23,970 nt of DNA from a virus (lineage: Duplodnaviria; Heunggongvirae; Uroviricota; Caudoviricetes), in IMG/VR virus record IMGVR_UViG_2681813429_000002; one strand, 5' to 3'. The notes beneath the pieces were generated by a model. It had not been told where the DNA came from. It made no database searches and worked only from the letters and a program-made list of their open reading frames with translations. The position numbers were made by a program, and so were the translations under genes. Below, piece after piece: positions 19,831 to 20,120 of the stretch (positions are counted from its first letter, which is position 1; each line of letters begins with the position of its first letter).

Positions 19831-19894
19831 AGCCTCCTCCCGGGTCCAGAACGCACTCAGCCGGGTATGGTTCAGCCCATTTTTCCCGGCGTCT

Positions 19895-20035
19895 CATGCC
19901 GCAAATGTTAACTGCTGCCTGGTTAACATTTGCTGAAAAAGCCTGTTAACATTTTTTCCGCACAACAAACTGAATAATAAAGATAAAAACCGCAAAAATG
20001 CCCGGGCAGCCAGTTAACATGTTAACTGCCCTGAA
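19895..20035. other. Putative packaging-initiation (cos-like) region with repeated GTTAACAT palindromic motifs
   Basis: GCAAATGTTAAC and its exact inverse GTTAACATTTGC separated by 9 bp, a third GTTAACATTTT, and a perfect 14-bp palindrome GTTAACATGTTAAC, in the non-coding interval between the HNH endonuclease and terS. Confidence 0.35.
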
Positions 20036-20120
20036 ACGGGAATTTTTTCTCTGCGTGAGAGGGGGCGCGGTGTCCAAAGCGATCGTTTTTTACGCCGGAT
20101 GATACCCCCCCCGGGTTGGG

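Follow-up and report, generated by a model that had tools for sequence, protein, structure and literature searches.

How the packaging machinery of a Shiga toxin (Stx)-type phage recognises and cuts its DNA is the question raised by a short interval in the DNA analysed here, a 23,970-bp stretch of IMG/VR record IMGVR_UViG_2681813429_000002 (hereafter, the window). The source is an Escherichia coli lambdoid prophage of the Stx-phage group; over this region it matches vB_EcoS-569R3 at 100% identity, and BP-4795, phage 2851, YYZ-2008, and many Stx1a, Stx2a, and Stx2c prophages at 95-97%. Between the gene for an HNH endonuclease and terS, which encodes the small terminase (TerS), lies a 290-bp non-coding spacer (19831-20120). 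An earlier note, made from the sequence alone, had taken this spacer for a packaging site of the cohesive-end (cos) type, with palindromic repeats as candidate binding sites for TerS or an accessory protein and a GC-rich segment as candidate nick site. From the present analysis we consider it probable that the interval is a cos site of two modules, belonging to the HK97-class, HNH-assisted systems that leave 3′ overhangs, in a Stx-type prophage (the BP-4795/2851/YYZ-2008/Lys8385Vzw group).

The cut and the cleavage core

PhageTerm analysis of virion reads has assigned phage Lys8385Vzw to the cos phages and placed its 3′ cohesive ends, CGCCCCCCCT, at the end of the genome (Zhang et al. 2021, PMC7946995). 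Lys8385Vzw (MT225100) is a Stx1 phage whose large terminase (TerL) is 97% identical to that encoded in the window; its spacer is about 96% identical and contains all five of the repeats described below. Its record, the one phage-collection record linearised within this spacer at the cut, ends in ...GGACACCGCCCCCCCT and begins with CTCACGCAGAGAAAAAATT, and the break, ...CCGCCCCCCCT|CTCACGCAGAG, corresponds to window 20060|20059. This terminus bears out the placement of cos in the HNH-terS interval, and by alignment with Lys8385Vzw we regard it as nearly certain that the spacer is a cos site. For phages of this class, a cos site between HNH and terS is textbook knowledge, and with the published terminus of a near-identical phage this part of the result was already known.

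The packaging genes all lie on the minus strand, a point that the earlier note had not remarked, and in what follows window 20059, the first base after the coding-strand nick, is called +1. For the cohesive end we predict a 10-nt 3′ overhang, CGCGCCCCCT (20060-20069, minus strand), bounded by nicks at 20060|20059 on the minus strand and at 20069|20070 on the plus strand. It differs by one base from that of Lys8385Vzw (CGCGCCCCCT vs. CGCCCCCCCT); the base concerned, a G or C at window 20066 (the fourth of the cohesive end), is polymorphic among E. coli prophages. On the plus strand the overhang reads AGGGGGCGCG and is contained in GAGGGGGCGCGGTG (20059-20072), the first of two GC-rich segments in which a nick site had been suspected. 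That suspicion held for this segment only: the second, CCCCCCCCGGG (20105-20115), proved to be a conserved G-run 46-53 bp upstream of the cut.

Termini of more distant phages were also compared with the predicted cut. In the record of Burkholderia phage Bcep176, whose TerS is 38% identical, a CGACGTTCC-type 10-mer, CGCACGTTCC, occurs at both ends, right before CTCACGCGCAG, and occupies the same aligned position as the predicted cut. The 10-nt 3′ overhang of VarioGold, CGATCGGTTC, is similar to the 10-mers found at the homologous position in loci of the family. At its right end HK97 has the sequence ...CAGGGGGGGGGATCAAATC...ATGAC|CGCCGCCAAA, in which a G-run stands ~50 nt from the terminus and GAC precedes the final 10 nt; a hidden Markov model (HMM) of the core, described next, is colinear with this end at a weak score (9.7 bits), the terminus falling at the predicted cut. 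Indirectly, by way of Lys8385Vzw and Bcep176, these records point to fixed ends with a 10-nt 3′ overhang in this interval. Several other record boundaries were set aside as uninformative: the phi330 record opens within terS, that of vB_PR2a opens in the A/T tract, off the cut, and in the other Stx-phage records, which were extracted as prophages, cos lies in mid-record.

Relatives were collected by a TerL scan of one genome per species, and the best 80 of 282 genome hits were used (TerL 55-83% identical; hosts in the Enterobacteria, Burkholderiales, Pseudomonas, Xanthomonadales, Neisseria, and others). The core HMM, which covers the region upstream of terS, matched 72 of 81 upstream regions (the 80 loci plus the window). 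The order of elements is a G-run, (T)GGACACC or TAGACC, the 10-mer, C(T/G)CACGC(G/A)CAGA, an A- or T-tract, and CCCC; the series from CACGC(G/A)CAGA through the A- or T-tract to CCCC is common to both of the TerS-type groups distinguished below. In the window, the upstream boundary of the core is a G8 run on the minus strand (a C-run on the plus strand) at 20105-20112, about −53 to −46, which is kept in the satellite copies described below. Just upstream of the overhang lies a CGATCG...TGGACAC segment (20070-20085, minus strand), in which (T)GGACACC or TAGACC is the family-wide part; CGATCG was found only in phage-borne enterobacterial copies and is not conserved in satellites, where TGGACACC is kept. 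The stretch CTCACGCAGAG-AAAAAA-TTCCCGTTTCAGG (20031-20059, minus strand) occupies +1 to +29, with its A6 tract at 20043-20048. As in an HK97-class site, the HNH gene is adjacent, ending 51 nt from the predicted overhang, and terS and terL follow.

In a metagenome-assembled genome of Citrobacter freundii (L031 1710-1960), a small open reading frame (ORF) with a hydrophobic N-terminus lies between the HNH stop codon and the G-run, so that the start of the core goes with the G-run, independently of the HNH stop codon. O157 strains carry PPompW prophages (L171 2775-4233; PPompW_699, LC567826.1) in which the IS110-family insertion sequence ISEc20 abuts the G-run at window ~20108. The upstream HNH and lysis genes are missing there, tRNA genes and Q lie beyond the insertion sequence, and terS, terL, and the repeats are kept next to a truncated cos core.

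Repeats downstream of the cut and the small terminase

Every spacer element described in the earlier note was found where it had been placed. These elements comprise an inverted repeat of GCAAATGTTAAC (19901-19912) and GTTAACATTTGC (19922-19933), 100% complementary and 9 nt apart; a third copy, GTTAACATTTT (19945-19955); and a 14-bp palindrome, GTTAACATGTTAAC (20013-20026; +34 to +47), which extends to a perfect 18-bp palindrome, CAGTTAACATGTTAACTG (20011-20028; +32 to +49), with two GTTAAC hexamers. In the whole window GTTAACAT occurs five times, always within the same 122 bp (19905-20026), against an expected 0.44 copies (standard deviation 0.70), and none of 100 shuffles reached five copies; five of the window's eight GTTAAC hexamers fall in the spacer. 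Downstream of the palindrome, the third repeat, ATGTTAAC (19945-19952, minus strand; +108 to +115), is invariant in 47 prophage variants, and the fourth and fifth make up the 12-nt inverted repeat GCAAATGTTAAC-N9-GTTAACATTTGC (19901-19933; +127 to +159), which marks the distal boundary of the conserved cos region. Between the repeat groups lies an AT-rich stretch (19953-19999, minus strand; 65-85% A+T) with T5 tracts at +62-66 and +71-75, more T runs, and an A6 tract at +103-108; it possibly represents intrinsically bent DNA, as inferred rather than computed. An Rfam scan of 19500-20500 at E ≤ 1 returned nothing, and a terminator scan found none. The lone weak promoter-like match, on the non-coding strand, is composed of the repeats themselves and was dismissed as chance-level. 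Among 47 unique spacer variants from IMG/VR the five motifs do not vary, and there is almost no variation anywhere downstream of the cut; apart from overhang base 20066, most spacer variation lies upstream of the G-run.

The terS gene (19267-19830, minus strand; 187 aa, with a GTG start at +230) encodes an N-terminal Terminase_2-type helix-turn-helix (HTH) domain and a conserved C-terminal region. Residues 2-57 match Pfam PF03592 (Terminase_2) at 36.0 bits against a gathering cut-off of 26.1, the protein belongs to PHROG 641, and matches to SF6-type small-terminase DNA-binding domains in the PDB (4zc3, 2cmp, 3zqp) are weak or marginal. Among 47 homologues the N-terminal 58 aa are the best-conserved part. 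In one allele (L148 1201-1911; IMG/VR UViG_2671181134_000002), 49 codons (PEVLAFIARKQCETVEV...PQPDENN) are perfectly duplicated in tandem and in frame, within the poorly conserved middle region.

Across the family, the repeat type was found to follow the type of TerS. Seventy core-bearing loci were typed as A, with an M(A)LTxKKR N-terminus and the Terminase_2 HTH domain, or as B, with MAGVKGxSGG (L011, L018, L019, L022, L026-L028, L030, L032, L033, L035, L036, L040, L041, L043, L044, L056, L064, L071, L072, L076, and L086). GTTAA/TTAAC occurs at +18 to +70 in 48 of 48 type-A loci vs. 1 of 22 type-B loci (Fisher p = 6e-17, ignoring shared ancestry), and AATCA(A/GCA)AATGG repeats occupy the same place in 19 of 22 type-B loci vs. 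0 of 48 type-A loci (Fisher p = 2e-14, likewise ignoring shared ancestry). Both TerS types are found within the same host genera, and HNH and TerL are homologous across both groups. Type-B TerS shares the C-terminal KKGEGGKK...PPKLVV region with the TerS of the window; its N-terminus is Arg/Gly-rich and AT-hook-like (MAGVKGRSGGARPGAGRKPK) and gave no Pfam match. The type-B repeats overlap the type-B terS start codon.

The type-A repeat likewise coincides with the start of terS in most relatives. In those with short spacers (100-122 bp), namely Salmonella phage FSL SP-016 and prophages of Enterobacter, Citrobacter, Entomohabitans, and Phlomobacter, terS starts at the (A/G)TG in the centre of the palindrome, with GTTAAC ATG TTA ACA encoding M-L-T; this start stands at +40 in most of them and at +58 in Phlomobacter. 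More distant relatives have TGTTA ATG GCT TTA ACA, an inverted repeat TGTTAA-N5-TTAACA, and TGTTAA-N4/5-TTAACA is present at +33 to +52 in most type-A loci. Within the repeat, the Leu codon is TTA in 37 of 45 loci, vs. 2.1% of Leu codons elsewhere in the same genes, and the Thr codon is ACA in 33 of 45, vs. 14% elsewhere (median G+C 60%), a codon bias that suggests constraint at the DNA level. Moreover, where the terS start is displaced, to +230 in the window, +145 in Paraburkholderia silviterrae (L014), and +133 in Neisseria musculi (L082), the inverted repeat is kept at about +31 to +55, and the insert of L014 also gained extra TGTTAA copies. The position of the repeat thus appears to be tied to the cut, not to the start codon.

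In the window, terS begins 190 bp beyond the palindrome with GTG CTG ACA (M-L-T), and no motif is found there. Its TerS is 42-49% identical to those of relatives whose TerL is 82-83% identical, a mismatch indicating that a terS module with its own 190-bp leader probably recombined in at the palindrome. This leader, which holds three further repeats, is specific to the present Stx-phage lineage, and the palindrome is the ancestral terS start site, neither of which the earlier note had remarked. A 24-codon hydrophobic ORF (MLTGCPGIFAVFIFIIQFVVRKKC; 19946-20020, minus strand) runs from the ATG of the palindrome to a stop codon in the third repeat. It gave no Pfam match and was rejected as a gene: the Shine-Dalgarno sequence of the relatives, GGAGG, is degraded to CAGGGC, and at its ATG the terS of the relatives begins with MLT(G/A)QKRK. 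Most likely the ORF is what remains of the ancestral terS start.

E. coli CH427 proved to carry a diverged copy of the cos region (about 80% identical), which terminates a 9.5-kb island lying between cspD and clpS (L172 1440-1760; L173 5962-15400, NZ_CM166357.1 639961-649400), and the same copy closes a related island at tRNA-Pro in JNEC-KY174 (L174 11001-21799). These islands (~9.5-10 kb) resemble phage-inducible chromosomal islands (PICIs) and encode an integrase, an HTH or PerC regulator, an Icd-like protein, DUF4222, a primase or RepA helicase, a ClpP-like prohead protease/capsid fusion, and a 93-aa PHROG-1561 protein; neither contains terS, terL, or HNH. The satellite version of cos was present at ≥80% of its length in 44 of 5,426 complete E. 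coli genomes. Compared with the window, it is identical at 10 of 10 overhang positions and at 26 of 29 positions from +1 to +29. From +30 to +157, all 38 motif positions are identical vs. 59 of 90 non-motif positions (p = 3e-6): the palindrome and the third repeat are unchanged (the flanks of the latter differ), the AT-rich stretch is only partly conserved, and similarity drops to 22 of 72 right after the fifth repeat. That a packaging-only element keeps the unit from G-run to fifth repeat without terS argues both against a purely translational role of the repeats and against their being scars. The protease/capsid fusion of the islands was considered as a link to a helper capsid and rejected, as it is unrelated to the capsid fusion of the window. 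A different satellite occupies the same cspD-clpS site in E. coli UTAK-10 (L175 11746-20215); it encodes a small terminase of its own, AlpA, and a P4-family primase, has a separate major capsid gene, and matches the CH427 query in two pieces covering only 38%.

Taken together, covariation with the TerS N-domain, the fixed distance from the cut, and selective conservation in satellites lend indirect support to the earlier suggestion that the repeats are sites for TerS or an accessory protein. It is likely, on these comparative grounds, that they form a recognition module for TerS. In the open-access literature, we found no description of GTTAAC units as a recognition module, of covariation with TerS type, or of capture by satellites.

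Proposed mechanism and alternatives

In the mechanism that we propose, the first module would be a cleavage core from −53 to +29 (20112-20031), comprising the G8 run, TGGACACC, CGCGCCCCCT, CTCACGCAGAG, and the A6 tract, which would go with TerL and HNH across Proteobacteria. The second, downstream of the cut, would comprise five ATGTTAAC units, two in the palindrome, one at +108, and two at +127 to +159, with the 18-bp palindrome as primary TerS recognition element. Oligomeric TerS would bind the GTTAAC units through its HTH domains and thereby place TerL over the core 35-40 bp upstream; TerL and the HNH protein would nick twice, 10 nt apart, leaving the 3′ overhang CGCGCCCCCT, and packaging would then run toward terS, down the window coordinates. 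The AT-rich stretch may bend the DNA, such that a single TerS assembly reaches the three distal units as well as the palindrome. Ancestrally, the palindrome would have lain over a terS start at +40, and a swap or insertion would have added ~190 bp and three units, moving the start to +230. The A/T tract at about +12 to +18, present with both TerS types, may have a type-independent role related to the A-tract of HK97. In this scheme we infer the physical binding of TerS, the division of the nicks between TerL and HNH, and the bending of DNA.

For the family as a whole, we lean somewhat toward the view that cos sites consist of two exchangeable modules, a cleavage core for TerL and HNH and a TerS-specific repeat at about +30 to +50 over the terS start. 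GTTAAC would go with the HTH-type TerS and AATCAAA with the Arg/Gly-rich, AT-hook-like TerS, and a joint swap would re-specify packaging; this extension we favour only slightly over its negation. With the same slight preference, Stx-type phages would have expanded GTTAAC to five copies, and terminase-less satellites would copy the module to be packaged by these prophages.

Several observations weigh against recognition of the repeats by TerS. The repeat abuts or overlaps the 5′ end of terS, and one of its arms encodes Leu-Thr, so that the covariation may in part be linkage; the locus counts are phylogenetically non-independent, and the two near-identical satellite copies amount to one lineage. 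Variation within the Stx-phage family is too low to serve as a test of motif constraint. Within the palindrome the hexamers are spaced 8 bp from centre to centre, which would be unusual for an HTH dimer, and since the A/T tract is conserved with both TerS types, some TerS contact may lie there instead. HK97, the only relative with a structural characterisation, has a single 15-bp TerS site, at +15 to +29, beside an A-tract read by shape (PMC11331095), whereas repeated palindromic units at +32 to +159 are proposed here. TerS of the window is unrelated to HK97 gp1 (BLASTP, E = 0.3) and thus not of gp1 type, which makes the HK97 analogy weak in either direction.

With these points in mind, the proposed recognition by TerS was weighed against other explanations. 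The repeats could be bound by another packaging component, namely the HNH protein, TerL, or a phage accessory protein, and in PMC11331095 and PMC9658991 the HNH protein is cited as needed for cos cleavage in HK97. However, HNH and TerL are homologous in type-A and type-B loci and only the TerS N-domain switches with the repeat type, and we consider this explanation unlikely. Another is that the GTTAAC inverted repeats serve terS as an operator of translation or transcription, working as an RNA hairpin or as a TerS autoregulatory site, and not a packaging signal. Nearly all short-spacer relatives do have the terS start inside the inverted repeat, whose arms could pair as a weak 6-bp A/U-rich hairpin around the AUG. 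Yet the palindrome of the window is perfect although it stands 190 nt upstream of the real terS start, L014 and L082 keep the repeat after loss of the start codon there, satellites retain all five motifs with no terS downstream, and the distance from element to cut is constant. We judge an operator in place of a packaging signal to be quite unlikely; autoregulation by the repeats may be an additional ancestral role.

It would be more surprising still if a host nucleoid protein (IHF, Fis, or H-NS) bound the repeats and bent cos, in the manner of I1 in lambda cosB. The repeats flank an AT-rich stretch with T-tracts, and lambda cosB requires IHF (PMC6739421), but no match to the IHF consensus WATCAANNNNTTR was found in +1 to +229 at ≤1 mismatch, the motif switches with TerS type within genera (Paraburkholderia L010/L011; Pseudomonas L050/L076), and the same motif is retained in hosts from Neisseria to Escherichia. 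We also see very little room for the extra copies being functionless scars left at the 5′ end of terS by recombination or duplication, with only the cleavage core mattering. The spacer insert does start exactly after ATGTTAAC, TerS and TerL identities (42-49% vs. 82-83%) indicate a module swap, and the third copy, ATGTTAACAGG, resembles the terS start of Citrobacter-type relatives. Scars would hardly account for five exact 8-mers where 0.44 are expected, for an inverted repeat and a palindrome that are perfect over 12 nt and 18 bp, respectively, for satellites that keep all motif positions while 34% of neighbouring positions changed, or for the parallel gain of copies in L014.

The site was also compared with known systems. 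Like HK97 (gp74 HNH, gp1 TerS, gp2 TerL), it has HNH directly upstream of cos, terS and terL directly downstream, a 10-nt 3′ overhang, and a homologous TerL (22.6% identity to gp2 over 478 aa, tblastn E = 8e-8). The comparison with HK97-like cos regions, which the earlier note had proposed, added the shared G-run distance from the cut, the GAC before the 10-mer, and the colinear terminus. The ancestral relatives, with terS starting about 40-50 nt from the cut, can be likened to HK97 in this respect as well, whereas terS of the window starts 230 nt from it. Pairwise comparison of the HNH protein with that of HK97 gave no detectable similarity. The cleavage half of the site is thus HK97-like, and the recognition half is not, because the TerS is unrelated.

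Lambda cos (cosQ-cosN-cosB, with R3, I1, R2, and R1) is similar in that a nick site is followed by several short repeats on the terS side, some of them mutually inverted and with AT-rich, possibly bent DNA between them (TerS binding being presumed in our case), and in that satellites exploit the site (PMC6739421). Lambda differs in its 12-nt 5′ overhang, the absence of HNH, the unrelated winged-helix gpNu1, the IHF site, and the repeat sequence; the TerS here is of Terminase_2 type, not gpNu1 type, and the overhang of Lys8385Vzw is 3′ and 10-nt. In EcCICFT073 and other Rpp-type PICIs, cosB is unlike that of the helper and TerS is redirected by Rpp (PMC6739421), whereas the satellites here copy the phage repeats. 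The small terminases of SPP1 and SF6 have an N-terminal HTH domain of the same Pfam family, PF03592. TerS of the SPP1-type family recognises repeated short boxes around bent DNA. Those phages differ in packaging by headful from pac; the present site has fixed cos ends, as reported for Lys8385Vzw, together with an HK97-class TerL and HNH. The Lys8385Vzw paper (PMC7946995) reports the terminus only and describes no repeats, core, or TerS site.

Distribution and flanking genes

The cos region is present, unannotated, in 1,277 of the 5,426 complete E. coli genomes, in up to 7 copies per genome, and was found in many Stx1, Stx2a, and Stx2c prophages. The cut and the likely TerS units would predict cross-packaging among prophages, defective prophages, and satellites, which bears on the spread of Shiga-toxin genes. 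They also define a fragment of ~215 bp (20112-19901) for use in cos plasmids or transducing particles. In addition, the natural pairing of TerS N-domain and repeat offers a simple, testable system for the reading of DNA by small terminases beyond those of lambda and HK97.

Directly upstream of cos, the HNH endonuclease gene (20121-20486, minus strand) encodes 121 aa with a match to Pfam HNH (PF01844, E = 2.7e-7); the protein falls in PHROG 589 (HNH endonuclease) and is 69% identical to the HNH protein of Salmonella phage FSL SP-016. Beyond terS, terL (17609-19270, minus strand) encodes an HK97-class large terminase of 553 aa with the Pfam domains TerL_ATPase and TerL_nuclease, 83% identical to TerL of FSL SP-016. 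It is followed on the same strand by a gene for a 645-aa fusion of a Peptidase_S78 prohead protease with the major capsid protein (15608-17545) and by the portal gene (13333-15396; 687 aa). In this order of terL, protease/capsid fusion, and portal (13333-17545), the capsid gene stands ahead of the portal gene, unlike the usual HK97 order.

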